Shown here: piece after piece, positions 29,169 to 54,787 of the stretch
Layout: every line of letters begins with the position of its first letter
Numbering within the stretch: position 1 is the first letter of the stretch
From: Sedimentisphaerales bacterium
Lineage (GTDB): Bacteria > Planctomycetota > Phycisphaerae > Sedimentisphaerales > SM23-30
Length of the DNA: 64,000 nt
Reading direction: 5' to 3' (one strand)
Assembly (NCBI GenBank): GCA_963666285.1
Contig: OY762711.1
The notes under the pieces: generated by a model
Seen by the model: only the letters and a program-made list of their open reading frames with translations
What the model was told of the DNA's origin: nothing
Database searches by the model: none
Translations under genes and position numbers: made by a program

Positions 29169-29316
29169 TTGTGTGTAATATCTAGTGCATAAGAAAATGG
29201 TATTTATAGGGCATTTAGAATGAAGGATTGTCAATCCCGGAATTTTCACCATGGATTGGTAAATATTATATTTAAGTCTGGTAAATAATTTGAGTTATAT
29301 TAAAGGAGATTCTGGT

Positions 29317-31050
29317 ATGATGTTTTACTGCGGACCATACGAAGAAACATACACTTCAACAGGAAAACTGTCTGGTTATAGGGTAAGAGTTAAACATACC
29401 GGATTGAATGAATATAAATATCTATCTGCAAGGGACAAAGATGTTCTTGAAGGTAAAATTGATAATCAGAAGAAAAACTGGGAGAACAAATGGCAAAGAC
29501 ATCTTGAAAGATTAGAAAAAGAAAAAGAGTTGCAGGCTAAGTTAGAGTGTGAGCAGTTAGCTGGCGAAAAAACTAAACAGGCAAAAGAATCAATTCAGCA
29601 AATTGAAAACATATTACTTTATACATTAGACATTGATGATGCAGTTGATTGGGATTCAATAAAGAACACAACACCGTTTAAGATTGAGAATCTAAAACAT
29701 GAATTTCTCATTTTTAGGGAATATGATGGATATCCACTTGGTGCAACTAAATTAGACATTCCTTTCATGCCAGAAAAAATTGATTACATTAAATCAATAC
29801 CATTCTTTAAAATGATTATTGGACAAAGGGGAAAAATCAGGGCGGAACAAGAAACTCAATTTTATAAGGCGACAAAAGCATGGGAAAAAGAAAAAAGTGC
29901 TATTGAAGAAGAAAATGCGAAAAGAGATAAAGCTGTTATTGTGGTTCAGGATAGGTGGGAAGCAGAAAAAAAGAAATATGAGGATAAACAAGCTGCTTTC
30001 AATCAAAAAGTTGAATTTTTAAAAAAATCATATGAAGATAAAAACGCTGATGCCATAAAAGAATATTGTGAGATCGTATTAAATAACTCAGAATATCCAG
30101 ATTCGTTTCCGAAAGATTTTGACCTTCAGTATAACCCAGAAAACAAAATGCTGCTGGTTGACTATCAATTACCTTGCTTGAATGACATACCTAAACTTAA
30201 CGTGGTAAAATATGTTAAGTCGAGGGATGATTATGAAATTAAATATTTAAGTGAATCCGCACACTGTAAACTATTTGATTCAGCAATATATCAGATAGCA
30301 TTAAGAACGATCCACGAGCTTTTTGAGGCAGACGTTATTAATGAGATATCTGCGGTTAATTTCAACGGAATAGTAACTGATGTTAATCCCGCAACAGGAC
30401 ATGAAGAGTCAAAATGTATTATATCGGTTCAAGCCCAAAAAGAACCATTTTTGCAAATCAATCTGGCACAAGTTGACCCAAAACAATGTTTCAAATCATT
30501 AAAAGGTGTTGGTAGTTCCAAGTTAAGCTCCATGACGGCAGTAAGTCCAATTATGGAGATAGATAAAAGAGATAGACGTTTTGTTGAACATTATGCTGTT
30601 GCTTCAGAAATAGATGACACATGCAATTTAGCTGCTATGGGCTGGGAAGACTTTGAACATTTGGTCAGGGAGATTTTCGAAAAAGAATTTGTTGAGCAAG
30701 GTGGTGAGGTAAAAGTGACGCGAGCGTCTTCAGATGGAGGAGTGGATGCGATTGCATTTGATCCAGATCCTATTCGAGGAGGTAAAATTGTTATCCAGGC
30801 CAAACGATATACAAATACTGTCGGAGTATCAGCTGTTAGAGATTTGTATGGAACGGTAATGAGTGAGGGGGCGACAAAAGGAATACTTGTTACCACAGCG
30901 GATTATGGTCCCGATTCATATGAGTTTGCCAAAGGGAAACCTCTAACATTGCTTAATGGATCTAATTTGTTATTTCTTTTAGAAAAACATGGCCATAAAG
31001 CAAAGATAGATATTAAAGAAGCAAAGAAAATATTGAAGGATAAAGTATAA
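29317..31050 (+). CDS. Mrr-like restriction endonuclease with long coiled-coil N-terminus
   Basis: C-terminal FEHLVREIF, SSDGGVDAIA, IQAKRY, AVRDLYG, KGILVTT; AAGGAG RBS. Confidence 0.88.
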   Translation: MMFYCGPYEETYTSTGKLSGYRVRVKHTGLNEYKYLSARDKDVLEGKIDNQKKNWENKWQRHLERLEKEKELQAKLECEQLAGEKTKQAKESIQQIENILLYTLDIDDAVDWDSIKNTTPFKIENLKHEFLIFREYDGYPLGATKLDIPFMPEKIDYIKSIPFFKMIIGQRGKIRAEQETQFYKATKAWEKEKSAIEEENAKRDKAVIVVQDRWEAEKKKYEDKQAAFNQKVEFLKKSYEDKNADAIKEYCEIVLNNSEYPDSFPKDFDLQYNPENKMLLVDYQLPCLNDIPKLNVVKYVKSRDDYEIKYLSESAHCKLFDSAIYQIALRTIHELFEADVINEISAVNFNGIVTDVNPATGHEESKCIISVQAQKEPFLQINLAQVDPKQCFKSLKGVGSSKLSSMTAVSPIMEIDKRDRRFVEHYAVASEIDDTCNLAAMGWEDFEHLVREIFEKEFVEQGGEVKVTRASSDGGVDAIAFDPDPIRGGKIVIQAKRYTNTVGVSAVRDLYGTVMSEGATKGILVTTADYGPDSYEFAKGKPLTLLNGSNLLFLLEKHGHKAKIDIKEAKKILKDKV

Positions 31051-40213: not shown

Positions 40214-41611
40214 ATGGATACAAAAACAATTAATTACGTAGCGCTTGGATGCGCCAAAAATCAAATTGATGCCGAGAAAATGCTTGGCTCACTCACCTCA
40301 GCCGGATATGTCTTAGTAGGCCCGGATGATCATGCAGACGCAACGATAATCAACACCTGTGGATTTATAGAAGATGCTCGCACTGAAGCAGTCGCTCATA
40401 TCGAATGGGCATTGGAACAGAAGAGCAAGGGAAATGTAGGTTTTGTTATTGTTACCGGATGCCTGGCCCAGTTATGGGGTGAGGAATGTTTTGAAAAGAT
40501 CAGCAGTGATATTGATGCCATTGTTCGCCTTGATAAGCGAGACAAGCTGGTAGAGATCCTGGGAAGCCTGCTGAAAGGGGATAGTAAAGTCGGTCAGGTT
40601 CATGGAGTTGAGAAATGGAGCGGGGTGTCGAGCGATCACGAACGAATGAGGCTTACAGATCGGAGTTGGGCATATCTAAGGATAAGTGAAGGGTGTAACC
40701 GCTGGTGCAGTTATTGTACAATCCCATCGATCCGGGGCGAGTTTCGCAGTAAGAGTATGTCCGAGATAGTCTCAGAGGCAAAAGAGCTGATAGCGGATGG
40801 TGCGATTGAGATTAACCTGATCGGCCAGGAGACGAGTTTGTGGGGAAGCGACATTGAGGGCAGCGGCGGGCTGGCCGCTTTGTTGAGAGAGCTGAATAAA
40901 TTGGAAGGTTTGCTCTGGCTGAGGGTAATGTATACCCATCCGGCCAGTTTGAGTGATGAGATAATAGAAGCGATGGCGGAATGCGAGAGAGTGGTACCTT
41001 ATGTCGATTTACCACTGCAGCATATCAATGACAGGATTCTCAAATTAATGAATCGCCGTGTAGACCGCGATTATGTTGAAGATTTGATCCAGAAGCTGCG
41101 TGAGCGGATCCCCGGAGTGGTTGTCAGGACAACAATGATAGTAGGGTTTCCATCGGAGAGCGAAGCAGAGTTTCGCGAGATGGTTGATTTCGTAAAGGAA
41201 ACCGAGTTCGATATGCTCGGAGCGTTTGCGTATTCGGCGGAGCCGGGAACGGCAGCGGCGGAGATAGAAGGTCATATTGATGATGAGTTAAAAGAGAAAA
41301 GGCTTGAGGAACTTATGCTGGCACAACAGGATATAGCCTTTGAGAAAGCCGCTTCGCAGATTGGCAGTGAATATGATTGTTTGCTGGTGAACTATATATA
41401 TGAGGAAGACCTGGAAGAACTGGGGCTGGATAAAGAGCTGCAGTGGTTTGAGGGCCGGTCGGCAATGCAGGGGCCCGAAGTTGACAGTGCAACCTGGGTT
41501 GGGATAGATGACGCAGATGAGATAGTACCGGGAATGATAATCGAAGTTAAGGTAGTGGATGCCGTGGATTATGACCTGGTAGCGGTACCAACAGGAAGAT
41601 CCTTGTGTTAA
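40214..41611 (+). CDS. rimO: Ribosomal protein S12 methylthiotransferase
   Basis: LGCAKNQIDAE, INTCGFIE, YLRISEGCNRWCSYC, YVDLPLQH, GRS..QGPEVD TRAM region. Confidence 0.92.
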   Translation: MDTKTINYVALGCAKNQIDAEKMLGSLTSAGYVLVGPDDHADATIINTCGFIEDARTEAVAHIEWALEQKSKGNVGFVIVTGCLAQLWGEECFEKISSDIDAIVRLDKRDKLVEILGSLLKGDSKVGQVHGVEKWSGVSSDHERMRLTDRSWAYLRISEGCNRWCSYCTIPSIRGEFRSKSMSEIVSEAKELIADGAIEINLIGQETSLWGSDIEGSGGLAALLRELNKLEGLLWLRVMYTHPASLSDEIIEAMAECERVVPYVDLPLQHINDRILKLMNRRVDRDYVEDLIQKLRERIPGVVVRTTMIVGFPSESEAEFREMVDFVKETEFDMLGAFAYSAEPGTAAAEIEGHIDDELKEKRLEELMLAQQDIAFEKAASQIGSEYDCLLVNYIYEEDLEELGLDKELQWFEGRSAMQGPEVDSATWVGIDDADEIVPGMIIEVKVVDAVDYDLVAVPTGRSLC

Positions 41612-41704: not shown

Positions 41705-42781
41705 ATGACAAAAGATAAATATAATATTGACAGTCATAAGCTGATGTATCATCCCGATATACTGGGAAGGTGGTTGGCAGGAGAAAATATTTATCCTCTA
41801 TATATTGAGGTAAGCCCGGCCGGAGCATGTAATCACAGGTGCGTGTATTGTGCACTTGATTTCATGGGTTATCAGAATCGCAGGTTAGATACAACTAAAT
41901 TTAGGCAGCGTCTTGAGGAAATGGGCAATATGGGTGTAAAAAGCATAATGTATGCCGGGGAAGGTGAGCCGTTTTTGCATCCTGATATGGCTGAGATAAC
42001 AGAGGCGACCAAATCGGCGGGGATAGATGCGGCTTTTACGACAAATGCAGTATTATTCAAACCGGAGATTCACGATCGAGTCCTGGCTAATACAGAATGG
42101 CTAAAGGTAAGTATTAATGCCGGTACGGCGGAGACGTATGCCAGGATTCATCAGACAAAAGCGTCTGACTATGAGAAAGTGATGGCGAATCTGAGTAGTG
42201 CTAATGAACTACGTAAGTCCAAGGGGTATAGATGCATACTGGGTATGCAGATTCTGTTGTTGCCTGACAATGCCGGTGAAGTTGCGGGACTGGCAGAGCA
42301 GGCAAGATCGATTGGGATGGACTACCTGGTGGTAAAGCCGTATTCTCAGCATCCGCAGAGCGAAACCAAGATTTACGAAGATATCAAGTATAGTGATTTT
42401 ATGTACCTGGCAGATGAGCTGGAGCAGTATAATACAGACGAATTCAGCGTAATATTCCGGGCGAATGCCATGGAGAAATATGATGCAGCGGAAAAGGATT
42501 ATTGCCGATGTATGGCATTGCCATTCTGGAGTTATATAGATTCTGGTGGTAATGTCTGGGGTTGCAGTATGTATTTAGAACAGGACAGATTCAATCTGGG
42601 TAATATAAACGATACCAGTTTTGAAAATATCTGGACAGGTGAGAAAAGAAAAGATCTGATGCAATGGATTGCTCAAGGCGATTTTGATGTCAGCAGTTGC
42701 AGGTTGAACTGTCGAATGGATGAGGTTAACCGGTATCTATGGCAATTGAAAAATCCTCCCAGTCATGTGAATTTTATTTAG
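41705..42781 (+). CDS. Radical SAM protein with SPASM/twitch-like C-terminus (#1)
   Basis: CNHRCVYC, AGEGEPF, C-terminal CMALPF..WGC..CRLNC. Confidence 0.9.
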   Translation: MTKDKYNIDSHKLMYHPDILGRWLAGENIYPLYIEVSPAGACNHRCVYCALDFMGYQNRRLDTTKFRQRLEEMGNMGVKSIMYAGEGEPFLHPDMAEITEATKSAGIDAAFTTNAVLFKPEIHDRVLANTEWLKVSINAGTAETYARIHQTKASDYEKVMANLSSANELRKSKGYRCILGMQILLLPDNAGEVAGLAEQARSIGMDYLVVKPYSQHPQSETKIYEDIKYSDFMYLADELEQYNTDEFSVIFRANAMEKYDAAEKDYCRCMALPFWSYIDSGGNVWGCSMYLEQDRFNLGNINDTSFENIWTGEKRKDLMQWIAQGDFDVSSCRLNCRMDEVNRYLWQLKNPPSHVNFI

Positions 42782-42803
42782 TATTATTTCTATTATAATA
42801 AAA

Positions 42804-43607
42804 ATGGATTTGAAAAAAGAAATAGAAAAAAGAGCCTTGTCGATAAGGCGTAATATAATCGAGATTGCGGCGAAGAGTCGAACAGCTCATGTAGGATCAT
42901 CATTGTCCTGTACTGATATCCTGGCGACATGTTATTTTGGTTTGCTGGAGATAGAGAAAGACCAGTGGAAGAGCAGGGATATTTTTATATTAAGTAAAGG
43001 CCATGCCGCATTATGTCTGTATTGCAGTTTGTATGAGAAGGGGATGCTGAGCTATGAGAAGCTGGCAGGGTATATGCAGAATGATGGAACTTTGCCGGCT
43101 CACCTGGACAGGTTCAGTGCAGATGGAATAGAGGTTTCTGCAGGTTCACTGGGCCATGGATTCAATGTCGGCCTTGGAATGGCATATAATTACAAGCTTC
43201 AGGGTGACAGCCGCAAAGTAGTAGCAGTAATTGGCGACGGTGAAAGCCAGGAGGGCAGTATCTGGGAAGGTGCTATGTTTTCGTCGAGCTACGGGATAGA
43301 TAATTTTACGGTATTCATAGATCATAATAATTTGCAGGGCTATGGCAGGCCGCTGGAGATCTGCGGATATGAGCCGATTGTTGAAAAGTGGCAGAGCTTT
43401 GGTTGGGATACTGTTGCGGTGAACGGTCATGATGTTGGTGAGATGCTGGAAGCGTTTAACCGCAGGCGTGAAGGTCGACCGAGAGCTATAGTCTGTAATA
43501 CGGTAAAAGGCAAAGGAGTGTCATTTATGGAGGATGAGTTGAAATGGCATTATTATATCGTAACCGATGAGTTAAAGGAGCAGGCATTACAGGAGTTGTC
43601 TCTGTAA
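42804..43607 (+). CDS. Transketolase, N-terminal TPP-binding subunit
   Basis: HVGSSLS, ILSKGHA, GSLGHG, GDGESQEG..WE, TVKGKG. Confidence 0.92.
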   Translation: MDLKKEIEKRALSIRRNIIEIAAKSRTAHVGSSLSCTDILATCYFGLLEIEKDQWKSRDIFILSKGHAALCLYCSLYEKGMLSYEKLAGYMQNDGTLPAHLDRFSADGIEVSAGSLGHGFNVGLGMAYNYKLQGDSRKVVAVIGDGESQEGSIWEGAMFSSSYGIDNFTVFIDHNNLQGYGRPLEICGYEPIVEKWQSFGWDTVAVNGHDVGEMLEAFNRRREGRPRAIVCNTVKGKGVSFMEDELKWHYYIVTDELKEQALQELSL

Positions 43608-43628
43608 GAGATAAGCAGAAAACGTACT

Positions 43629-44528
43629 ATGAGAAACAGCACGATAAACCATTTAACAGAATATGCAGCGGCAGATGATAATATCTTTGTAATTGCCGGC
43701 GATGGAGGCTATGGTGTATTAGATAAATATCAGCAGGAGATGCCAAAGCAGTATTTGAATATGGGAGTCGCAGAGCAGAATGCGATAGGTTTTGCTGCCG
43801 GGCTTGCAATGACAGGTCGTAAGGTATTTGTCTATAATATAACCCCGTTTGTTTTGTATAGATGTTACGAGCAGGTTCGCAACGATATCTGCTATCAGAA
43901 GGTGCCGGTTGTACTGATAGGTATTGGCAGCGGACTGGCGTATGCGCCGGGCGGAATGACGCATTATTCGGTAGAAGATATAGCGTTGGCGAGGACTATG
44001 CCGGGTTTGGAGATAATATCACCGGCAGACCCGGTTGAGGCATGTGCGTCGGTAGATTATGTTATGCGAAGTGATAAGCCGGCATTTATACGGATAGCGC
44101 GTGGTGGTGAGCCTAAAATTCATAATGAAAGAATAGAAGATATAAGTAAGCCGATTCTGATGAATAAAGGTTCGCGGACTGCGGTATTGTTTCATGGCGC
44201 TGTGTCGGTTGAGGTGATGGAAATGTTGAAAATGGCCGTGGAGAAGCCGACAGTGATATCAATTCCAATGGTTTCGCCGCTGGATTTTGACTGCCTGGAA
44301 GATATGCTCGAAGGTGTAGATCGGATAGTGACTGTTGAAGAACATTATGTAGTAGGCGGTTTGGGGTCTATAGTTGGTGAGTGGATTCTGGATAATGATA
44401 AGCCGTATAAGCTAAAAAAACTTGGCGTGGATTATGAGTTTATCCATCAGGTAAAGAATAATAAAGGGATGCGTGAGTTGTTTGGTATAAGTAGTGATAA
44501 GATATTGAAGAGTATATATGGCAAATAA
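43629..44528 (+). CDS. Transketolase, C-terminal subunit
   Basis: NMGVAEQN, RCYEQVRND, GMTHYSVED, TVEEHYVVGGLG. Confidence 0.92.
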   Translation: MRNSTINHLTEYAAADDNIFVIAGDGGYGVLDKYQQEMPKQYLNMGVAEQNAIGFAAGLAMTGRKVFVYNITPFVLYRCYEQVRNDICYQKVPVVLIGIGSGLAYAPGGMTHYSVEDIALARTMPGLEIISPADPVEACASVDYVMRSDKPAFIRIARGGEPKIHNERIEDISKPILMNKGSRTAVLFHGAVSVEVMEMLKMAVEKPTVISIPMVSPLDFDCLEDMLEGVDRIVTVEEHYVVGGLGSIVGEWILDNDKPYKLKKLGVDYEFIHQVKNNKGMRELFGISSDKILKSIYGK

Positions 44529-45546
44529 GACAGTTGACAACAGGACATGGCTTGAACGTGATGAGCGTTTGCTGAGAAAGGGTCTGGCAGGAGAGGCAGG
44601 CCCTGTGTCAGTAGAGGTGGGCCCGGTTAACGGGTGTAATCATGAATGCCTGCATTGCGGCTATACGCAGCTGTTTGATGAAAGTCGTGCGAATCAGATT
44701 ATACCTCGTACAGAAGTTTTTTACCGGTTTCTGGATGATTTTAAGCAGCTGGGTGGAAAGGAAGTTTTTTTTGCCGGAAGCGGAGAGCCGACTTTGCATC
44801 CTGATTTGTTTGACTGGTCAGATTACGGTCATAAGCTCGGGTTGCTGATGCAGCTGAGTACAAATGGTATCGCGTTTACGGATAAGAAAAAAGAAATTGC
44901 CGTAAAAAGCATGCAGTGGATACGTTTTTCGGTTAATGGCGGTGATGCTGATACCTATGCCAGGGTTCATGTGACAGATATAAAAGATTTCGACCGGCTG
45001 AAGTCAAATCTGAAGGATATGGTTTCGATTCGAAACAGTACAGGTGCAGAGTGCAGGCTGATAATGCAGATAGCGTTGTTTGAAGCAAATTATAAATCTT
45101 TTGATGCACTGGTAGATTTATTTAATGAGAGCGGGGCCGACCAACTGGTAGTAAGAAGGGCCAGGTTCCAGGATAATGCTGATGAATGGATTCCGGATAG
45201 TAAGTTTGCGAGAAAATTGCGAGAATATGATACAGTTGAAAATATCCAGGTTCGCTGGGACTGTTTTAGCGAGAACGAGAGTATCAAGAAATGGGAAAGA
45301 TGCCTGGCGCCGAACTTTAAGACGCATATGGACTACAATGGGAAATTGATGGCCTGTGTCAACCCGGATTCATATAGCTATATCTACGGTAATATTTGTG
45401 AAGATCGTTTTAAGGATATCTGGTTTTCAGAGAGGAAGAAGGAGATATTTAAGGCAGTTGAAAGCCTGGGCGCAAAGTTAAATTGTTATAATCTTTGCGG
45501 AATAGCGAGGGATAACAGGTATATTAATAACACAATAAGCATGTGA
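44518..45546 (+). CDS. Radical SAM protein with SPASM/twitch-like C-terminus (#2)
   Basis: CNHECLHC, AGSGEPTLHP, CLAPNF..MAC..CYNLC. Confidence 0.9.
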   Translation: MANKTVDNRTWLERDERLLRKGLAGEAGPVSVEVGPVNGCNHECLHCGYTQLFDESRANQIIPRTEVFYRFLDDFKQLGGKEVFFAGSGEPTLHPDLFDWSDYGHKLGLLMQLSTNGIAFTDKKKEIAVKSMQWIRFSVNGGDADTYARVHVTDIKDFDRLKSNLKDMVSIRNSTGAECRLIMQIALFEANYKSFDALVDLFNESGADQLVVRRARFQDNADEWIPDSKFARKLREYDTVENIQVRWDCFSENESIKKWERCLAPNFKTHMDYNGKLMACVNPDSYSYIYGNICEDRFKDIWFSERKKEIFKAVESLGAKLNCYNLCGIARDNRYINNTISM

Positions 45547-45598
45547 TTTATGCTTCGCATTATATGCCAAGTATAACACTTAAAAAAACAAGAAGTTA

Positions 45599-46711
45599 AT
45601 GGATAAAAGTATGGAAGATAAAATACACTGGTGGAACATCAATCTTTCAATTGAAGAGGTTGGTTCGGTTACATCGGCCATTAATGACCGGTGTGTCAGT
45701 ATGGGGCGGTTGACAAAGGAGTTTGAATCGCGGCTGGCTGACAGGCTTGGAGTGCAATATGCCGTATGTGTTCCAAATGGTACTATGGCGCTTATGGTGG
45801 CGTACCTGGCATGTGGTGTAGGACCTGGCACAGAGGTTATTGTGCCGGACAGGACGGCAATAGCAACAGCGCATGCGGCGATGCTGTTAGGTGCGGAAGT
45901 TGTATTTGTGGATGTGCAGAAAGATTTGCCGGTAGTAGACTGCGGTCAGATAGCAGAGAAGATATCAGATAGAACAAGGGTGATCGCCCCGGTTCATTTG
46001 AGCGGATTTCCGTGCGATATTTCGAGAATCCTTGATATTGGAAAGCAAAATAATATTGATATCGTAGAAGATACCTGCCAGGCGGTGTTTTCATCGGTAG
46101 ACGGCAAGAGCCTTGGCAGCTTTGGCCGGTTTGGCTGTTTTTCGCTGGGTATGGTGAAAATGATGACCACCGGTCAGGGAGGATTTTTGTGCTGTAACAG
46201 TACATCGGATTATGAACTGCTAGTGAGTATAAGAGATCAGTATATGATAGCGGATTATCCGGCAAGTTATGCGAGGCAGGTTTCGGGTAATTTTAAGTTT
46301 AATGATATCCTGGCGTCAATCGGTCTGGCCCAGTTTGACAAGGTAGATAGAAAGATAGAGTCTCAAAAGGCAATCCATAAGGCGTATAGTGAAGGTTTGT
46401 CAGAAGCAGGCTCAGTGAGGTTTCTGGAGGGAGATTTAGATAGCGGTATGCTGCCTTTGAATGCCCTGGCTGTAGTGACAGAGCGTGAGAAGTTTGTCAG
46501 GATGCTGGAAGCAGACGGAATCGGCTGTAAGCCGCATGTACGCAGCATGAGTGAGATTGCTCACCTTAAGGCATGTGGAGCGTTTCCCAATTCTATGTTT
46601 TTCAGCGAGCATGAGGTGTGCCTGCCTTGCGGGCCGGATCAGCCAATAGAGAATATAGCTAAAACAATAGAAGTAATAAAGAAAATAGATGTTGAACTTA
46701 GACCCTGGTAA
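45599..46711 (+). CDS. DegT/DnrJ/EryC1/StrS NDP-sugar aminotransferase (#1)
   Basis: NGTMAL, PVHLSG, VEDTCQA, FSLGMVKMMTTGQGG (PLP lysine). Confidence 0.9.
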   Translation: MDKSMEDKIHWWNINLSIEEVGSVTSAINDRCVSMGRLTKEFESRLADRLGVQYAVCVPNGTMALMVAYLACGVGPGTEVIVPDRTAIATAHAAMLLGAEVVFVDVQKDLPVVDCGQIAEKISDRTRVIAPVHLSGFPCDISRILDIGKQNNIDIVEDTCQAVFSSVDGKSLGSFGRFGCFSLGMVKMMTTGQGGFLCCNSTSDYELLVSIRDQYMIADYPASYARQVSGNFKFNDILASIGLAQFDKVDRKIESQKAIHKAYSEGLSEAGSVRFLEGDLDSGMLPLNALAVVTEREKFVRMLEADGIGCKPHVRSMSEIAHLKACGAFPNSMFFSEHEVCLPCGPDQPIENIAKTIEVIKKIDVELRPW

Positions 46712-46714
46712 GCA

Positions 46715-47443
46715 ATGGAACTGATACCTGACAATATAGAAGTCAAGCCAAACTCTGTGGCAATAGTCGGCTGGGAAGAGGGCGGTGCCGGTCAGATACA
46801 TGAATGGCTGCATAAGACAGGTGATTATGAAGTATGCTGTTTTGTGAATCCGTCTGATGATGTGCCGGATATTGATATAGCCTATGAGCGAAGCAGACGA
46901 GATTGTCAGTTGTTTTCATATCCAGAGAAGAACAAGTTTAAGGGGCTGCCGCTGATAACATCGTTAAGGTGGGATAATATCTTGTCAGAACTTGGGATAT
47001 CGATGGTAATAATAACCACCAGCGACAATCGGGTGAAGCTGGGGCATATTGAGCAGGCCCGTAAAGCTGGTTTTGAATTGATTAATGCGATACATCCAAC
47101 AGCGAATCTGCTGGAGAAGTCGGTTTTGGGCAAAAATGTAATAGTATTTGCCAGGGCGATAATCGGGTATAAAGCAGAACTTTGTGATGGAGTGCAGGTT
47201 GGTATTAATGCCCAGCTGGACCATCATTGTATTGCCCGGGAATGTTCAGTAATCGGTCCGGGGGTAGTTGCCGCCGGTAATGTGACAATAGGAAAATGTG
47301 CGACAGTATGGACCAATGCTACAATAATCAACCGTATACGTATAGGTGATGATGCGGTTGTCGGTGCTGGTTCGGTGGTACTAAAAGATATTGATGCCGG
47401 TGATGTAGCAGCAGGAGTTCCGGCACGAAGTATAAGGAAATAA
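46715..47443 (+). CDS. Hexapeptide-repeat sugar acyltransferase, PglD/PerB/NeuD-like (#1)
   Basis: NAIHPTA, LDHHC, left-handed beta-helix repeats, VGAGSVV, GVPAR. Confidence 0.88.
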   Translation: MELIPDNIEVKPNSVAIVGWEEGGAGQIHEWLHKTGDYEVCCFVNPSDDVPDIDIAYERSRRDCQLFSYPEKNKFKGLPLITSLRWDNILSELGISMVIITTSDNRVKLGHIEQARKAGFELINAIHPTANLLEKSVLGKNVIVFARAIIGYKAELCDGVQVGINAQLDHHCIARECSVIGPGVVAAGNVTIGKCATVWTNATIINRIRIGDDAVVGAGSVVLKDIDAGDVAAGVPARSIRK

Positions 47444-47444
47444 A

Positions 47445-48107
47445 ATGGGCGAGTTATTAAATATAGTTAATCCCTTACATAAAAGAACCAAGCGTGATTA
47501 CGTGGCACGCATGGTGGATGAGAAGGTTCATTGTATGGGGGTTGCGAAGCAGTATGAAATGGACTATTGGGATGGCGACCGTCGATTTGGCTATGGCGGG
47601 TATAGTTATGATGGCAGATGGTCGGTCGTGGCAGAAGCGTTGATTGAGAGATACGGGCTGCAGGATGGATGCAGGATACTGGACTTTGGCTGTGGTAAAG
47701 GATTTTTGCTGTATGAGTTTGCCAGGCTGCTGCCGGACGCCGAGATTACCGGTTTTGATATTTCCCGTCATGCTATTGAGAATGCCAAGCCTGAGATCAA
47801 AGATAAGTTATATCTTGCAGATGGCCGGGAGAAGCTGAGCTTTGATGATGACAGTTTTGATCTTGTTGTTTCGCTGGGAGTCCTGCATAATTTTAAGAAT
47901 TACGAGCTGGCATCGGCTTTGAAGGAAATCGAGCGAGTCGGCAGGAACAAATATATGATGACCGAAAGCTTTCGCAGTGATCAGGAACTGTTTAATCTGC
48001 AGTGCTGGGCTTTGACCTGTGCGGCATTTATGATGCCAGAAGAATGGGAATGGTTTTTTCAGCAGTGCGGATATACCGGAGATTATGAGTTTATTTATTT
48101 TGAATAG
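47445..48107 (+). CDS. Class I SAM-dependent methyltransferase
   Basis: YWDGDRRFGYGGY, ILDFGCGKGF, FDDDSFDLVVS. Confidence 0.88.
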   Translation: MGELLNIVNPLHKRTKRDYVARMVDEKVHCMGVAKQYEMDYWDGDRRFGYGGYSYDGRWSVVAEALIERYGLQDGCRILDFGCGKGFLLYEFARLLPDAEITGFDISRHAIENAKPEIKDKLYLADGREKLSFDDDSFDLVVSLGVLHNFKNYELASALKEIERVGRNKYMMTESFRSDQELFNLQCWALTCAAFMMPEEWEWFFQQCGYTGDYEFIYFE

Positions 48108-48118
48108 CGAGCAATATT

Positions 48119-49192
48119 TTGAGCCAGAAATTATATACCAGGTATAAGATTTTTCATTATAAGGACAAGCTTGATTCGCTTCCAAGAGAAGCTGAAAATA
48201 TCAAGCCGCCGCTGCATATACGGATAAAACCTACTAATGTTTGTAATCATAGCTGCAGCTATTGTGCGTATCGGGTAGATCAGCTGCAGCTGGGATGTGA
48301 TATGGATGTTCGAGACAGTATCCCGCGTGAGAAGATGTCTGAGATAATCGATGATATAATTGATATGGGCGTAAAAGCGGTGACATTCAGCGGCGGGGGC
48401 GAGCCTTTTTGCTATCCGTATTTACTGGAGACTGTGAAGAAACTGGCAGACAGCCCGGTTAAATTTGCGTCCCTGACAAATGGGGGGCTGCTGAAGGGAG
48501 AGGCAGCGGAGGTATTTGCCCATAAAGGCACCTGGCTGAGGATCTCTATTGACGGTTATGACGGTCCGAGTTATGCCAGGTATCGCGGGGTTTCCGAAGA
48601 TGAATTTGCGAAAGTAATCACAAATCTGCGGAATTTCAGGGCTTTGGGTGGAAGCTGTTATACGGGTGCAAGTGTTATAATTGATGAGAATAATGCCGAG
48701 CATTTGTATAATCTCGTCAGCTTATTGAAGGATACCGGAATTAACAGTGTGAAGTTGTCTGGGTGTGTGATAGATAATGATGGAGCGAAGAATAATCAAT
48801 ATCATCAGAAGTTCTGGAATGTTGCTCGTAGCCAGATAGATATGATAATGAATATGCTGCCGGAAGAAGGGTTCGAGATATATGATACGTATCATCTGCT
48901 GTCTGATAAGTTTGTCAAGACATACAGATGGTGCCCTTATTTGCAGATATTGACGGTGATCGGGGCGGATCTAAATGTATACACATGTCAGGATAAGGCA
49001 TATAACCTGACTGACGGAGTTGTCGGCAGTATCAAAGATAAGAGATTCAGAGATTTCTGGATGGATGGTAAGGATAAGTTTTTCAGGGTTAATCCGCTGG
49101 TTAACTGTAATCATCATTGTGTCTCGAATGACAAAAACAGGATGGTTCTGGACTATCTTGAGGCAGATAAAGAGCATTTGGCGTTTGTGTAA
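48119..49192 (+). CDS. Radical SAM protein with SPASM/twitch-like C-terminus (#3)
   Basis: CNHSCSYC, SGGGEPF, CPYLQI..YTC..CNHHC. Confidence 0.9.
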   Translation: MSQKLYTRYKIFHYKDKLDSLPREAENIKPPLHIRIKPTNVCNHSCSYCAYRVDQLQLGCDMDVRDSIPREKMSEIIDDIIDMGVKAVTFSGGGEPFCYPYLLETVKKLADSPVKFASLTNGGLLKGEAAEVFAHKGTWLRISIDGYDGPSYARYRGVSEDEFAKVITNLRNFRALGGSCYTGASVIIDENNAEHLYNLVSLLKDTGINSVKLSGCVIDNDGAKNNQYHQKFWNVARSQIDMIMNMLPEEGFEIYDTYHLLSDKFVKTYRWCPYLQILTVIGADLNVYTCQDKAYNLTDGVVGSIKDKRFRDFWMDGKDKFFRVNPLVNCNHHCVSNDKNRMVLDYLEADKEHLAFV

Positions 49193-49212
49193 TTTGACGC
49201 TGACACAAAAAC

Positions 49213-51402
49213 ATGAAAAAAAGAAAAAGGATTTATGTTTTGAGTTCTGAATTATTAGAAGAGCAAAATTTGAAAATAATGCTGGCTCTGCTTTGCGAAG
49301 ATAAATATGATATGCTGGCAGAAGCAGCTGAGTTAATGGCAGCAAAGGCTGTGACGGATTTAGAGAACCGGCTGGCAGAGATATTTTCTGCATGGTCTGT
49401 CAAAGATAATTTGAAGGCTGTAGAACTGTTCTATTTACTAAGCCAGAATCAGTATTTATTTGAAGATAATGATTGCCGAAATTTACTTTTGCCGTTTTGG
49501 ATCAGGTCTCAGCTATTGATACCGCACCGTTCAAATCCGTCATATAAGCAGATATTTAAAAATTACAGGGCGAATCTTCGAGTTTTGAAGAAAATCGATC
49601 CGGACCTGACAAAAGAAATCGAAAGTTCAAAGATGCCGGAGAACCTGGTAATTATTTATACCTGGAATGGCCTGACCGCTTATGATTACAGAAAGAATGC
49701 CTTACTTGATTGTTCGGAAGCAGAGTTTTCGCAATTAGATGTGGTCTGCAACCAGATACAGAATATTGGTTTTGCCGGGGTTCAGAAGTGCAAGCATATA
49801 GCATATTGTCTGTCAAAACAATATAAAGGATTGTATGGCATGACCAGGCTCCATTATGTTTTTGAAGAGGATATTTCCCAGTTGAGGCTGTTTTTAAGTC
49901 TATATGATTTTTCTAGTTATTTGACAACGAATGAATTAAAAATATTTGGGGGCGCAGAATGGTATAACCATTTATATGAATTTGTGCGGGATGGATATTA
50001 TTTACTGCCCAATTCATTGGTGGCCGATGTAGACGGTAAATACGATTCGAAGGTAGGAGATATTCACGATAAGATATTTAATGAGTGTGAGTCAGTAAAA
50101 GAAGAGGTTTACTCGTATTATAAGTCAGAGGAATTTAAGTCTCGTCAGCAAAAAATAGCAAAAGGTGAGCTAATGCCGAGAATTCTGGTTATCACCTGCC
50201 GCTGGACAACATTTCTTAAATATGCGGCCAAAGATTTTCAGCTAGCGTTTGAAGATGTCGGCTGTGAGACAAAGTATCTGATAGAAAAAGATGATGTTCA
50301 GTCATTGTCCTTAATGGCTAATTTTAATGAGATATCCGGTTTTAAGCCTGATGTTTGTTTTTCAGTCAGCCATGCCAGGCCGTCATATTCATTTTTTCCG
50401 AAAGAGTTGCCGATAATTTCCAATATACAGGATAAATGCGGTAAGTTAAGTGAGATTATGGATATCTCAGAATATTACAGCGAGAAAGATCTTTATGTCT
50501 GTATTTCACCGGCCCATTCAGAATATGTTGCCCAGAAAAATGTGCCGTCCGCCCAGATCATAATCTGGCCTATGCCGGCAAATGAGAGGTTATTCTTTCC
50601 GTTAGGTGAAGAAGTCTCGGTTCCAGCCAGATATATTTCAGATATAAGTTTCGTTAAGCATTGTAACGGCTGGCATGAAGATGTAATGTCAGAATTTATC
50701 CAGAGTATCCAGAATGACATAAAAATTTCAGAAGATGGCCGCAATTATCTGAGCCGTTTTTTTAATGATGTTCATGAGATAGGTAAAAAGAACGGGACCA
50801 AACGGATATACGAAGATGAGATAATTAGACAGGCATGTCATGTTTTTGATGTAAATGTTGAAAAAGATAAAGAGAAACTTCACATTATCAACCAGTTTTG
50901 TCATCATTATTACGTTGGTCCATTTTCTGATTTATGGCGAGGATTATTTATCGAGGCTCTGGCAGAAAATGACTTTGACCTGGCTTTATATGGTAACGGC
51001 TGGGATAAATATCCAGCTGTAGCAAAGTATGCAAGGGGTGGTGCGAATAGAGATACAGAGCTGAATTATGTTTATAACAATACAAAGGTTAATCTGCTTA
51101 TCAGCCAGGCGGGGACGCTGCATGTAAGAATTGCCGAGTGTGGTATGGCTAATGCTTTTATTATGATAAGTGACCATGACCAGTCAAAAGACTGGGGCCC
51201 GGCGAGAGAATATTACGAAGAGGGCAAAGAAGTAGTCTTTTTTGATGATAGAAAAGATCTGATAGAAAAGACTAGATACTACCTGGAGCACGAAAACGAA
51301 CGAATCGAGATAGCGACAAACCTTCATAAAAAAGTAATGGCGACAATGTCATGCAAGTCGGTTGCAAAAATGATACTGGAAAAATGGCGGACGCTGTTAT
51401 AA
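49213..51402 (+). CDS. Large glycosyltransferase with C-terminal CgeB/Glyco_trans_1_2-like domain
   Basis: LYGNGW, VYNNTKVNL, HVRIAEC, YEEGKEVVFFD...YYLEHENERIEIA; long N-terminus not confidently assigned. Confidence 0.75.
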   Translation: MKKRKRIYVLSSELLEEQNLKIMLALLCEDKYDMLAEAAELMAAKAVTDLENRLAEIFSAWSVKDNLKAVELFYLLSQNQYLFEDNDCRNLLLPFWIRSQLLIPHRSNPSYKQIFKNYRANLRVLKKIDPDLTKEIESSKMPENLVIIYTWNGLTAYDYRKNALLDCSEAEFSQLDVVCNQIQNIGFAGVQKCKHIAYCLSKQYKGLYGMTRLHYVFEEDISQLRLFLSLYDFSSYLTTNELKIFGGAEWYNHLYEFVRDGYYLLPNSLVADVDGKYDSKVGDIHDKIFNECESVKEEVYSYYKSEEFKSRQQKIAKGELMPRILVITCRWTTFLKYAAKDFQLAFEDVGCETKYLIEKDDVQSLSLMANFNEISGFKPDVCFSVSHARPSYSFFPKELPIISNIQDKCGKLSEIMDISEYYSEKDLYVCISPAHSEYVAQKNVPSAQIIIWPMPANERLFFPLGEEVSVPARYISDISFVKHCNGWHEDVMSEFIQSIQNDIKISEDGRNYLSRFFNDVHEIGKKNGTKRIYEDEIIRQACHVFDVNVEKDKEKLHIINQFCHHYYVGPFSDLWRGLFIEALAENDFDLALYGNGWDKYPAVAKYARGGANRDTELNYVYNNTKVNLLISQAGTLHVRIAECGMANAFIMISDHDQSKDWGPAREYYEEGKEVVFFDDRKDLIEKTRYYLEHENERIEIATNLHKKVMATMSCKSVAKMILEKWRTLL

Positions 51403-51414
51403 GGAGAATAGTGT

Positions 51415-52305
51415 ATGAATCAGGCAGAATTTCCGCCTTATATACAAATAGAAACATCATTTGCATGCAATGCCCGCTGTAATATGTGTGTTGTACACAA
51501 AGCAGAGAGGGCTGCATTTATGTCGGATGAGCTATACGATAAGATATTGGCTGAGCTGTCCGGTAAAGCTGCCGAGATCAGGAGAGTGACGATACAGTTT
51601 TGTGGAGAGCCTTTGTTGGATAAGAAGCTCGCGTATCGGATAAGAAGTCTTAAGGAGGCAGGTATACCAGCTGTATATTTCGGTACAAACGGTTCTTTAC
51701 TGGCACCAGAGAGGTGTGGAGCGATTTTAGAGTCCGGTGTTGACCAGATAGATATTTCAGTTGACGGAGCGACCGCCGAAGTATTTGAAAAGATCAGACT
51801 GGGCTTGAACTACGGTGAGGTTAGCGAGAATATAAAGACATTGATAAAAATGCGAGATGAAGGTCAATATCGAACAGCTATCAGGTTGAGGTATACAATT
51901 CAGAAGGAGAATGTACACGAGGTCGATGATTTTCTGGGTTACTGGGAGCCGTTACTGAAATCTGGAGACCGGGCGTATGCGAAATATATCCATACTTTTG
52001 GAGGAGATAAACAGCTGGAAGAACTTTTTCCGGATAAAAGGCCATCGGATGTTAATCTGGATGACAGACCATGCATTTCTCCCTGGCAATCTTTTGTAAT
52101 TTTAACTGACGGCAGAGTAGTACTTTGCTGCAATGACTATTCCGGTCAATATATAATGGGTGATTTGAATAGGGAAAGTATTGCGCAGGTCTGGAATGGC
52201 GAAGAGTTTAATAATATTCGCAGTAAGCATGCAGAGTCAGGTAGGAAGAGTATTGCTATATGTCGGGGATGTACAGTTTGGGACGATGTCTCGCAACTGC
52301 AGTAA
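51415..52305 (+). CDS. Radical SAM/SPASM protein (#4)
   Basis: CNARCNMC, GEPLLD, CISPW..DGRVVLCCND..CRGC. Confidence 0.9.
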   Translation: MNQAEFPPYIQIETSFACNARCNMCVVHKAERAAFMSDELYDKILAELSGKAAEIRRVTIQFCGEPLLDKKLAYRIRSLKEAGIPAVYFGTNGSLLAPERCGAILESGVDQIDISVDGATAEVFEKIRLGLNYGEVSENIKTLIKMRDEGQYRTAIRLRYTIQKENVHEVDDFLGYWEPLLKSGDRAYAKYIHTFGGDKQLEELFPDKRPSDVNLDDRPCISPWQSFVILTDGRVVLCCNDYSGQYIMGDLNRESIAQVWNGEEFNNIRSKHAESGRKSIAICRGCTVWDDVSQLQ

Positions 52306-52419
52306 GTTTCGGCAGGCAAGATCAAATATGAAATGACGTTGATTTTTGCTTTATAAAAGGATAATATGCTGTAGTTGAAGGCGTTAGTAGATGAAAGTTT
52401 ACGTTACGAAAGGTAATAT

Positions 52420-53148
52420 ATGGAATTAATACCACCGGATATTTCAGTTAAGCCGAATTCTGTTGCGATTGTAGGCTGGGAAGCGGCTGTAGCCGGTCAG
52501 GTTCATGATTGGCTTGAATCAACAGGCGATCACAGTATATGCTGTTTTGTTAATCCTGCGTTAGAGCCTCCTGATGTTGATATAGAGCTGGAAAAGACAA
52601 GACGCGATTGTCAGACATTTTCGTATCCGCATAAAGACAGTTTCAAGGGTTTGCCTTTGATTACGTCGCTAGACTGGTATAATGTGCTGGTTAAGTTAGG
52701 GATAAAAAAAGTGCTGGTAAGTACCAGTCAGCTGCATGATAAGGTTAAGCATATCCGGCAGGCAAGGGATGCCGGTTTGAAATTTGTCAATGCGATTCAT
52801 CCAACAGCAACCCTGCTGGAAAAAAGTGTCATTCATGAAAATGTGATTATATTTGCCAGGGCTGTTGTTGGTTATAAGGCTGAGATATGTACCGGAGCGG
52901 AATTGGGTGTGAATTCGCTGCTGGATCATCATAATATAGCCAGAGAATGCTGTTATATTGGTCCCGGTGTGACAGCGGCGGGTAATGTTACTGTTGGTGA
53001 ATGTGCATATGTATTTACTAATGCGACTTTGGCCCATAAGGTAAAAGTAGGGAAAAATGCAGTTGTAGGGGCTGGTGCAGTTGTAACTGAGAACGTTCCA
53101 GAGAACGATACAGTTGTTGGGGTTCCGGCTCGCAGTATAAGGAAATAG
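52420..53148 (+). CDS. Hexapeptide-repeat sugar acyltransferase (#2), paralog of 46715-47443
   Basis: Same length (242 aa) and collinear sequence (MELIP..I.VKPNSVAIVGWE ... GVPARSIRK). Confidence 0.88.
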   Translation: MELIPPDISVKPNSVAIVGWEAAVAGQVHDWLESTGDHSICCFVNPALEPPDVDIELEKTRRDCQTFSYPHKDSFKGLPLITSLDWYNVLVKLGIKKVLVSTSQLHDKVKHIRQARDAGLKFVNAIHPTATLLEKSVIHENVIIFARAVVGYKAEICTGAELGVNSLLDHHNIARECCYIGPGVTAAGNVTVGECAYVFTNATLAHKVKVGKNAVVGAGAVVTENVPENDTVVGVPARSIRK

Positions 53149-53188
53149 CGGATATTATCATTTATAATTGTCTGCATAATATTTTGAT

Positions 53189-54298
53189 TTGGCAGGAAGA
53201 AGCTTGAAAGTACCATTTTTAGATTTAAGAGTGACAGATAGCGAGGAGCGGGAGCGACTGCTCGCTTCGGTTGAGCGGGTGTTGGACCATGGTATCCTGA
53301 TTAATGGACCGCAGGTAGATGAGTTTGAGCAATTAGTAGCAAACAGCTGTAATCGTCAGTACGGGGTAGGTGTCAGTTCTGGTACAGATGCTTTGTACCT
53401 GGCTTTGCGGGCCCTGGATATTGGTCCGGGGGATGAAGTGATATGTCCATGCTGGAGTTGGATTGCGACGGCAAATGCAATAGCTCAGACGGGTGCATCG
53501 CCGGTTTTTGCTGATGTTGATGATCGGTTATGTATTGATCCTGTCAGTGTCGAGCGTTTGATTACTGAAAAGACAACAGCAATTATTCCCGTACATTTTG
53601 CCGGAAGTATCTGTCAGATAGATAATATCGTTGATATTGCCAGGGAGCGTGGGATATTTGTTATTGAAGATTGTGCGCAGGCATATTCTGCAACATATAG
53701 GGAGAGGCCAGCCGGTTCATTTGGTGATATAGGCTGTTTCAGTATGAATACGATGAAGGTATTTGCTTCACTGGGAGAGGCCGGAGCAATTGTAACTGAC
53801 AGTAGTGAAATATCAGAGAGAATAAAGATATTGCGTTATAATGGCATGATAGACCGCCATACGTGCAATCATTCCAGCCATAATGGTCGTCTAGATACTA
53901 TCCAGGCCTCGATTCTGCTGGAGCGTCATAAGACATTGCCGACTCTTATTTCTGCCCGTCGAAAAGCTGCTGATTTATATGATCGGCTGCTGACAGGGAT
54001 AGTGCTGACTCCGTACAGGTGCAGTTCGCGTTGCGATTCGTACTATACCTATACTATCCAGGCAGACTATCGCAATGAATTAAAAGCATACCTGGCGGAG
54101 CGTGAGATCGAGACTCAGATACAGCATCCTTTGCTGATGTCACAGCAGCCTGCATATCGGAATTGCAGAAAAGATTCTCTATCTAATGCGCTGCGGCTTC
54201 TGGATAGAGTTTTATGCTTGCCGGCAAATGAAAAGACAACAGATCGGCAGGTTGAGTTTGTAGCAAACAGGATTCGAGATTTTTATAAGGTGAAATAA
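53189..54298 (+). CDS. DegT/DnrJ/EryC1/StrS NDP-sugar aminotransferase (#2)
   Basis: SSGTDAL, PVHFAG, IEDCAQA, FSMNTMKVFASLGEAG, NGRLDTIQA. Confidence 0.9.
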   Translation: MAGRSLKVPFLDLRVTDSEERERLLASVERVLDHGILINGPQVDEFEQLVANSCNRQYGVGVSSGTDALYLALRALDIGPGDEVICPCWSWIATANAIAQTGASPVFADVDDRLCIDPVSVERLITEKTTAIIPVHFAGSICQIDNIVDIARERGIFVIEDCAQAYSATYRERPAGSFGDIGCFSMNTMKVFASLGEAGAIVTDSSEISERIKILRYNGMIDRHTCNHSSHNGRLDTIQASILLERHKTLPTLISARRKAADLYDRLLTGIVLTPYRCSSRCDSYYTYTIQADYRNELKAYLAEREIETQIQHPLLMSQQPAYRNCRKDSLSNALRLLDRVLCLPANEKTTDRQVEFVANRIRDFYKVK

Positions 54299-54787
54299 AT
54301 GGCTTCAGTACTAAAAATTGAAAATCCCGATGTGATATCGCTATGTCATAATGACATGGAAGAACTGAAAAAGAATGCGAAGAATGAACCGTTGCGACGC
54401 AGCAGGTATTGTTTGCATACAGATAATACCCAGTTGGTTCACGAGATGATCATAGCACAATGTTACGATACATATAATCCTCCACATCGGCATGTAGGTA
54501 AACCGAAATCATTTCATATGATTGAGGGTAGGATGAAGGTTGTACTTTTTGACGATGGTGGCAATGTTACAAATTCATTTGTTATGGCACCGCCCGGCAG
54601 TCGCGGTGTTACTATATTTCGACTGAATAAGCCTTGTTATTTTACCGTTGTACCGCTAGATGATATTGTGATAGTTCACGAAACGGTACAGGGGCCGTTT
54701 GATCCATCAAAAAAGGATAATGCGCCTTGGGCACCGCCCCAGGAAGATATAGCGGCTGGTTTGGAATATCTCAGCCGATTGCCTTAG
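54299..54787 (+). CDS. WbuC-like cupin-fold metalloprotein
   Basis: RRSRYCLH, HEMII, PPHRH, HETVQGPF, APWAP. Confidence 0.82.
   Translation: MASVLKIENPDVISLCHNDMEELKKNAKNEPLRRSRYCLHTDNTQLVHEMIIAQCYDTYNPPHRHVGKPKSFHMIEGRMKVVLFDDGGNVTNSFVMAPPGSRGVTIFRLNKPCYFTVVPLDDIVIVHETVQGPFDPSKKDNAPWAPPQEDIAAGLEYLSRLP

Follow-up and report, generated by a model that had tools for sequence, protein, structure and literature searches.

Sugar branching by thiamine diphosphate (ThDP)-dependent enzymes has been described for YerE, ErwE and MMAR_2332, for α-KADH2 pairs, and for the miharamycin/amipurimycin split transketolases, where a keto sugar and a ThDP-borne C2 unit give a tertiary-alcohol branch. As far as the available text of a 2025 review goes, transketolase (TK), E1/α-KADH2 and acetolactate synthase (ALS)/YerE-like enzymes are the only ThDP superfamilies reported with ketone acceptors, and branching by split transketolases has been proposed but is unproven in vitro, with 13 candidates, all from Streptomycetes (PMC12247030). 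In a second system, Cj1427 of C. jejuni oxidizes GDP-heptose at C4 and feeds epimerases and reductases, with no ThDP enzyme in the passages available (PMC10680097). Here we analyze a window (the whole stretch of DNA under study, 64,000 nucleotides of contig OY762711.1 in the Sedimentisphaerales bacterium assembly GCA_963666285.1) that holds a cassette of 13 genes behind rimO, among them genes for four radical S-adenosylmethionine (SAM) proteins (rS1 to rS4), the two halves of a split transketolase (tktN and tktC) and one glycosyltransferase (GT). In its workings the cassette resembles YerE-type branching and Cj1427-type heptose tailoring, though it belongs to neither. It differs from Cj1427 in using a radical SAM protein and from the described branching systems, as presented in the same parts of the review (PMC12247030), in being a surface-glycan cassette whose ketone would come from such a protein. 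We lean slightly toward the reading that it makes a branched amino sugar from housekeeping ADP-heptose, by rS1 oxidation and a transketolase-added branch, for transfer to protein.

The gene order of related loci places rS1 in a slot that is elsewhere filled by an NAD-dependent short-chain dehydrogenase/reductase (SDR), which we call SDRc4; the two genes occupy an equivalent position. Locus L150 reads HldE*-F6-GmhA-rS1-HAD-APH-tktN-tktC-mt-rS3, where HldE* is a reversed HldE (nucleotidyltransferase-PfkB order) and mt a methyltransferase gene, and L002, L058, and L059 are similar; L156 reads GmhA-SDRc4-HAD-APH-tktN-tktC-mt-rS3, with L152 and L154 similar. The same pairing is seen in L143 (GmhA-SDR5-rS1-mt-E1a-E1b) versus L162 (GmhA-SDR5-SDRc4-E1a-E1b). 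Locus tallies were made by six-frame tblastn, called open reading frames (ORFs) being unreliable in GC-rich loci. In 46 of 54 loci, rS1 is followed by a ThDP gene within 3.5 kb (TK in 27, E1-alpha in 10, ALS/YerE-like in 9), so that all three ThDP branching types occur in the slot, and HldE*/GmhA genes lie within 2.5 kb upstream of rS1 in 38 of the 61 loci with room for them and upstream of SDRc4 in 7 of 14. The rS1-like sequences are abundant, with at least 524 confirmed relatives in one metagenome scan.

Co-occurrence of rS1 and SDRc4 in one locus was found in none of 130 loci, which comprise 80 from metagenomes (the best of 524 confirmed), 36 from a phylum search (the loci of 16 rS1 genomes, with G042 replacing G041, plus 20 of 22 SDR places), 11 from the family, and 3 others. 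Among 25 genomes of the family, rS1 orthologs (E<1e-100) are present in 10 and SDRc4 in six without overlap; all 16 of these genomes are GT-positive, and the six GT-negative genomes carry neither gene. The naive P values for this pattern, 0.03 and 0.003, are overstated because kin genomes are not independent. A survey of 351 genomes of the phylum of G041, scored on 5-6 candidates per genome, gave 16 rS1-like and 21 SDRc4-like genomes, again without overlap; the comparison of loci carries more weight than this survey.

By its sequence, SDRc4 may be a Cj1427-like dehydrogenase. An acidic residue in the S-S-x-S-V-Y-G motif marks 4,6-dehydratases; all 22 SDRc4 rows have YxxxK, and none has such a residue in this motif. 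The family SDRc4 is 65% identical to an SDR encoded between SIS and E1-alpha genes on an Azospirillum plasmid, and SDRc4 was not found on the Bradyrhizobium BTAi1 plasmid, where the plasmid only was covered. In a PDB search its best matches were 6vo6/6vo8 (E 5e-42, the next at 1e-27), distant relatives that share the SPRxRxD motif and are presumably Cj1427, although the available passages of PMC10680097 give no PDB code; its best NCBIfam match is GalE, below cut-off. We liken SDRc4 to Cj1427 also in that both stand in heptose-type pathways, as far as the passages on Cj1427 describe its own (PMC10680097). Since rS1 stands in a slot filled by an SDR elsewhere, the same oxidation is predicted for it, by different chemistry: rS1 is likely to form the ketone on which the ThDP enzyme acts, and dehydrogenation specifically at C4 is slightly favored. 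Several points weigh against these assignments. About one chance overlap would be expected in the 351 genomes, so that zero is uninformative alone; the loci were picked by a single anchor gene, many of them are short, and related genomes do not count as independent; of 17 SDRc4 cases, no more than 9 have a ThDP gene within 3.5 kb; and SDRc4 is only distantly related to 6vo6, itself presumed to be Cj1427.

On the preferred reading, ADP-heptose from housekeeping genes elsewhere in the genome would be the start, and rS1, using SAM and its auxiliary cluster as electron sink, would convert it to a 4-keto-heptose, to which TktN/TktC would add a 4-C-hydroxyacetyl branch with ThDP. More oxidation, amination and N-acylation would be provided by rS4/degT2/cupin/ac2 and rS2/degT1/ac1, methylation and a late radical step by mt and rS3, and cytoplasmic transfer to a protein, most probably flagellin, by the GT. 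That an activated sugar is tailored and then transferred by the GT is very probable.

To what the sugar is transferred is less clear from the GT itself. Its structure model (predicted local distance difference test score, pLDDT, 92) has helical residues 17-138, an α/β Maf-N-like region to about residue 270, and a GT-B domain; compared over residues 316-729, this domain matches GT-B enzymes (Z 17.1 for PimB', root-mean-square deviation 3.6, 308 aligned residues) and has a GT4-like fold. The family comprises 1,046 representatives at E<1e-30; no sequence relative was found in the PDB, and no match on plasmids nor, with a narrow profile, in the 351 genomes. Among 36 GT homologs, tetratricopeptide repeat (TPR) matches occur in eight and Maf_flag10_N matches in three, one of them over the Pfam cut-off; Pfam finds no TPR in the window GT. 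This flagellin-GT-like architecture, which the original prediction left out, appears in the structure model and in the domains of homologs. It is like that of FlmG in being soluble, with a helical/TPR-like N terminus followed by GT-B, in flagellated hosts, to the extent described in the available text on FlmG (bioRxiv 2023.12.03.569772), and it shows a weak likeness to the N terminus of Maf. Both differ from the window GT in their donors, pseudaminic or legionaminic acid (Pse/Leg); domain scans found no MAF_flag10/DUF115 (PF01973) domain in the window GT and, over all 13 genes, neither a NeuB-type synthase nor a CMP transferase.

Flagellin is carried by 15 of 15 GT-family genomes (9 families; 301 phylum genomes sampled), against a baseline of 108/201, and by both GT-family genomes of another phylum. 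The host has seven PF00669 matches scattered over its chromosome, and 1-7 occur in each of the 25 family genomes, although some may be hook-associated FlgL. The G570 island ends in maf-fliC-fliD-fliS and carries the GT and rS1-like genes about 14 kb ahead of these. The GT also stands beside HldE*-SDRc4-tktN in L187 and beside tktN-rS1-tktC in L186, both from phylum members, which ties it to the sugar of the slot. Flagellin as the acceptor is an even bet. Against it stand the weakness of the Maf-N similarity (Atlas score 0.78; hhalign E 0.007, probability 5.7), the presence of a Maf of its own in the G570 island, and the finding of flagellin near the GT in none of 19 GT-positive family genomes and within none of 19 distant loci, the distant loci having been inspected through called ORFs, which could miss genes, supplemented by genome coordinates. 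A different acceptor for the same chemistry, whether another cytoplasmic or surface protein, the lipopolysaccharide (LPS) core, or a lipid carrier, is a sizable minority possibility. The lack of linkage between the GT and flagellin in family genomes, the occurrence of rS1 cassettes elsewhere with GT9/GT4 or polysaccharide genes, and the GT4-like C-terminal fold all speak for it; against it, the 13 genes include no export or polymerase genes, the TPR/Maf-N-like N terminus with GT-B parallels FlmG within the text available on it (bioRxiv 2023.12.03.569772), and 17/17 GT-family genomes of the distant search are flagellated. About 35 kb past the cluster, L131:7029-10402 (host C1 ~2.457-2.460 Mb) holds a gene for a PseF/NeuA-like cytidylyltransferase and one for a radical SAM protein that is spiro-SPASM-like but scores below cut-off.

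The donor was also left out of the original prediction. A genome search found homologs of hldE, gmhB, gmhA, and hldD outside the cluster, with hldD and the adenylyltransferase domain of hldE above cut-off and the best matches of gmhA, gmhB, and whole hldE below it; hldE is present in 23 of 25 family genomes. We consider a heptose donor moderately likely. The reversed HldE genes of other systems have a described counterpart in the Coxiella burnetii LPS region cbu0674-cbu0678, which encodes GmhA, a reversed HldE, and SDRs and is needed for full-length LPS with branched sugars; in the passages available, the function of CBU0678 is stated to be unknown and a radical SAM gene is unmentioned (PMC5843353, PMC13552124). 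According to the same passages, the function of the reversed HldE is unknown even where it has been mutated (PMC5843353), a point against our reading of the donor as a heptose. A hexose nucleotide donor (UDP-GlcNAc, GDP-Man or dTDP-Glc), with heptose genes lost as the substrate changed, seems unlikely, though several observations fit it: HldE*/GmhA genes occur in 0 of 11 family loci, both aminotransferases resemble hexose enzymes, and ADP-heptose already has an LPS use in the host genome, which carries three canonical GT9 genes. However, rS1 is 53-66% identical to homologs directly behind HldE*-GmhA, and the near-universal housekeeping hldE explains why the cassette could lose HldE*/GmhA, if ADP-heptose is borrowed. 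Two further finds concern the GT family. In P0115, a distant family member, the GT is joined in one protein with a SIS (GmhA-like) domain, a link by fusion between the GT and heptose-type metabolism. At L125:9545-13527 (host C1 ~4.0075-4.0115 Mb), the window GT has a distant paralog (22%/651 aa) that lies together with genes for a GT9-like and a radical SAM protein; these two genes come from families found as neighbors of rS1 in other genomes, and the trio may have been split off from the system.

The chemistry of rS1 can be approached through its cysteines and its solved relatives. The radical SAM motif CxxxCxxC (C42/C46/C49) is present in 74/74 homologs, with equivalent motifs in rS2-rS4. 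In the C-terminal part, C269 and C287 are kept in 74/74 and C332 and C336 in 73/74, and only these four are conserved; their spacing is 18/45/4. Profile positions 213-334 of rS1 match BtrN (E 9e-11), and the four cysteines together with this match to the twitch region of BtrN make rS1 twitch-like. Four conserved C-terminal cysteines were found in rS1 and in rS3, short of the seven or more of two-cluster SPASM proteins, and the cysteine lists of rS2 and rS4, taken from their own sequences only, fit a one-auxiliary-cluster pattern; the original description of four radical SAM/SPASM enzymes is right as to radical SAM, but the four look twitch-like and not like two-cluster SPASM proteins. None of the four passes an NCBIfam cut-off (the DesII model TIGR04426 gives 40-44 bits against a cut-off of 450). 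In the PDB, the best relative of the rS1 family profile is DesII (E 5e-17), followed by BlsE (8e-13), with BtrN and 7wzv also among the top relatives; like rS1, these sugar radical SAM enzymes have a single auxiliary cluster, but the likeness is one of profiles only (E 1e-17 to 1e-8). BtrN, DesII, and BlsE belong to antibiotic pathways. Such sugar-enzyme relatives support a sugar as the likely substrate of rS1.

Because DesII, the best solved relative, is a lyase, which counts against a dehydrogenase, dehydration by rS1 has to be weighed as well. If rS1 were a radical dehydratase or lyase of the AprD4/DesII/BlsE kind, it would yield a deoxy-keto sugar, and loci with rS1 and with SDRc4 would differ in their sugar. 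We hold this to be rather improbable, even though both DesII and BlsE head the list of solved relatives and YerE-type acceptors are 3,6-dideoxy-4-keto sugars in the available part of the review (PMC12247030). Exchange of rS1 with an SDR that lacks the dehydratase acid, with the downstream genes unchanged, fits the same product. Moreover, the four auxiliary cysteines of rS1 presumably resemble in spacing the fully ligated cluster of the dehydrogenase BtrN. A distant rS1 relative (26%) occurs in L041, on a Streptomyces vietnamensis plasmid, with genes for a second radical SAM/SPASM protein, UDP-galactopyranose mutase, a DegT protein, and an NTP transferase, possibly a small sugar or nucleoside cluster.

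The split transketolase, the last element of the slot, comprises a ThDP-binding N domain (TktN) and the pyrimidine-binding/C domains (TktC) and sits downstream of the predicted keto-forming oxidoreductase, rS1 having this role by prediction. Ketone formation followed by carboligation would be the simplest reading of the slot, and addition of a hydroxyacetyl branch by the transketolase is fairly likely; the skeleton would be C9 if the donor is a heptose. In the acceptor motif H-x-G-x(3)-G-E-D-G, TktC has Gly100 and Gly108 in place of the His and Asp seen in 6yaj and in the host housekeeping enzyme. These two residues have acceptor-binding roles in transketolase. Of 35 tktC rows, 33 have Gly at the position of the His, and the two exceptions lie outside the slot; the rows represent 31 distinct genes, short tktC forms (<200 aligned residues) being left out. 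Branching by a thiamine enzyme, as first proposed, is thus supported by the interchange of three ThDP superfamilies and by the loss of canonical transketolase residues. It is very unlikely that the transketolase is instead an upstream supplier of sedoheptulose or octulose phosphate for GmhA, with rS1/SDRc4 as epimerases and a straight-chain heptose or octose as product: its nearest structure is a true split transketolase and SDRc4 does point to GalE, but the acceptor His/Asp are kept only in the housekeeping enzyme and the two tkt genes outside the slot, transketolase is retained in family clusters without GmhA and HldE, and it is replaced elsewhere by E1-type and YerE-type enzymes, which give 1-deoxy products that GmhA cannot use. 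A second type of family cassette (L027, L029, L032, L201, L202) has rS1, tktN, and a short tktC (~160-185 aa), in many cases joined by rS1b, another paralog of rS1; the mt-rS3 pair was not found in the loci retrieved.

The remaining genes form tailoring modules. In the family, counted over the loci retrieved, several of which stop at contig edges, the recurring modules are [rS1 or SDR]-tktN-tktC, mt-rS3, rS2-degT1-ac1, rS4 with degT2, and degT2 with the cupin. The three genes rS2-degT1-ac1 occur together in 3/3 genomes with rS2, degT2 in 7/9 with rS4, and the cupin in 7/9 with degT2; a formyltransferase-like gene replaces ac2 in G003, G011, and G017. WbpE and QdtB, near which DegT2 falls, are C3-type aminotransferases. 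Whether rS2/degT1/ac1 and rS4/degT2/cupin/ac2 are oxidize-aminate-acylate units is evenly balanced. For rS3, found in 10 of 41 relatives, the four cysteines C272/C290/C330/C334 and the extra C180 and C216 are all kept in 12/12 homologs; mt lies within 1.5 kb in 25 of 30 rS3 occurrences, and a comparison of mt with the PDB gave no informative match. The constant company of rS3 with rS1 or SDRc4 (30/30) was rejected as evidence, the loci having been picked on those anchors. The idea that radical SAM proteins replace NAD enzymes in supplying keto sugars therefore fares unevenly: slot equivalence with an SDR and zero co-occurrence support it for rS1, aminotransferase co-occurrence alone extends it to rS2 and rS4, and for rS3 there is no dehydrogenase evidence. 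In G017 (L020:6792-8644), degT1 and ac1 seem split across frames by frameshift or assembly errors, and the family cassettes of G019 and G010 (L014, L018, L025) carry FkbH-like, acyl carrier protein (ACP)-sized, and MaoC genes, which hints at a sugar decorated with acyl groups.

The cluster as a whole (Table 1) consists of 13 plus-strand ORFs at 41705-54787 with intergenic gaps of -11 to 114 bp. ORFs, TIGR01125, and gap sizes bear out the 13 co-oriented, tightly spaced genes of the original prediction, and Pfam/NCBIfam its inventory of transketolase N and C halves, two DegT aminotransferases, two acyltransferases, a methyltransferase, a WbuC protein, and one GT; domain scans of the 13 genes likewise found no Wzx/Wzy, ABC transporter or exporter, nucleotidyltransferase, or SDR, as it had stated. 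Synteny, which it named as a check, is conserved as recurrent modules around the GT and not as the full set, since none of the relatives examined has all 13 genes. A long GT ortholog is present in 19/25 family genomes, two of these orthologs being incomplete at contig edges, and the cluster is a mosaic in which modules are gained and lost around a family-wide GT. The single-sugar route first envisaged has to be widened to a mosaic that may make more than one sugar.

Table 1. Genes of the cluster and its anchor, with window positions and the evidence for each assignment
Gene and assignment	Position	Strand	Evidence and predicted role
rimO	40214..41611	+	TIGR01125 above cut-off; genus-level locus anchor, outside pathway
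rS1, twitch-like radical SAM	41705..42781	+	C42/C46/C49 and C269/C287/C332/C336; predicted NDP-heptose oxidase
tktN, ThDP-binding half of split transketolase	42804..43607	+	PF00456; PDB 6yak E 8e-60; predicted C2 branching
tktC, C-terminal transketolase half	43629..44528	+	Aligned to 6yaj; Gly100, Gly108 at canonical His, Asp
rS2, radical SAM, 28% to paralog rS1	44518..45546	+	Predicted oxidase feeding degT1
degT1, pyridoxal phosphate (PLP) sugar aminotransferase	45599..46711	+	PF01041; best PDB matches perosamine synthetase, E 5e-41
ac1, NeuD/PglB/VioB-like N-acyltransferase	46715..47443	+	TIGR03570 129.6 bits, below cut-off of 160.8
mt, class I SAM methyltransferase, rS3 partner	47445..48107	+	Domain scan; proximity to rS3
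rS3, radical SAM, putative late tailoring step	48119..49192	+	C272/C290/C330/C334, extra C180, C216
GT, 729-aa glycosyltransferase, PF13524	49213..51402	+	Structure model; predicted cytoplasmic protein (flagellin) glycosyltransferase
rS4, radical SAM	51415..52305	+	Domain scan; predicted oxidase feeding degT2
ac2, hexapeptide acyltransferase, ac1 duplicate (62% identity)	52420..53148	+	Sequence comparison
degT2, PLP sugar aminotransferase near WbpE/QdtB	53189..54298	+	Sequence comparison
WbuC-family cupin, possible isomerase/epimerase, degT2 partner	54299..54787	+	TIGR04366 above cut-off

We rejected rimO as a pathway member, as it is a housekeeping anchor. It adjoins a GT-family gene also in G001 and G003. 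The rimO-adjacent GT of the host is 61% identical to a cassette GT located elsewhere in G003 but only 30-35% identical to the GTs beside rimO in G003 and G001, which suggests that cassettes have been exchanged at this anchor. On composition (GC 0.38-0.47 versus 0.41 for the genome), we also rejected a recent foreign island. Upstream of the cluster, the window has an Mrr-type restriction endonuclease gene at 29290-31050; at 54899-57892, a gene for a class II B12 ribonucleotide reductase converges on the cluster end.

No description of this pathway was found in the literature searched, in which subscription papers are incompletely covered. Caryose and bradyrhizose are C9 carbocyclic sugars. A bolder combination, which we think improbable in its entirety, would make rS1 a widespread radical SAM family of NDP-heptose C4-dehydrogenases that anaerobes employ where others have an NAD enzyme, the split transketolase a ketone-accepting carboligase, rS3 and mt the closers of the branch to a caryose/bradyrhizose-like C9 carbocycle, and the GT a third class of flagellin glycosyltransferase, using branched heptose nucleotides and not sialic-acid-like donors.

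The analysis offers a testable reaction for a large unannotated radical SAM family, reached through non-orthologous displacement, and provides soluble candidates from outside Streptomyces for asking whether ketones can receive hydroxyacetyl units from split transketolases. The GT family around which the modules are assembled is uncharacterized, and it may glycosylate flagellin with a new class of sugar.

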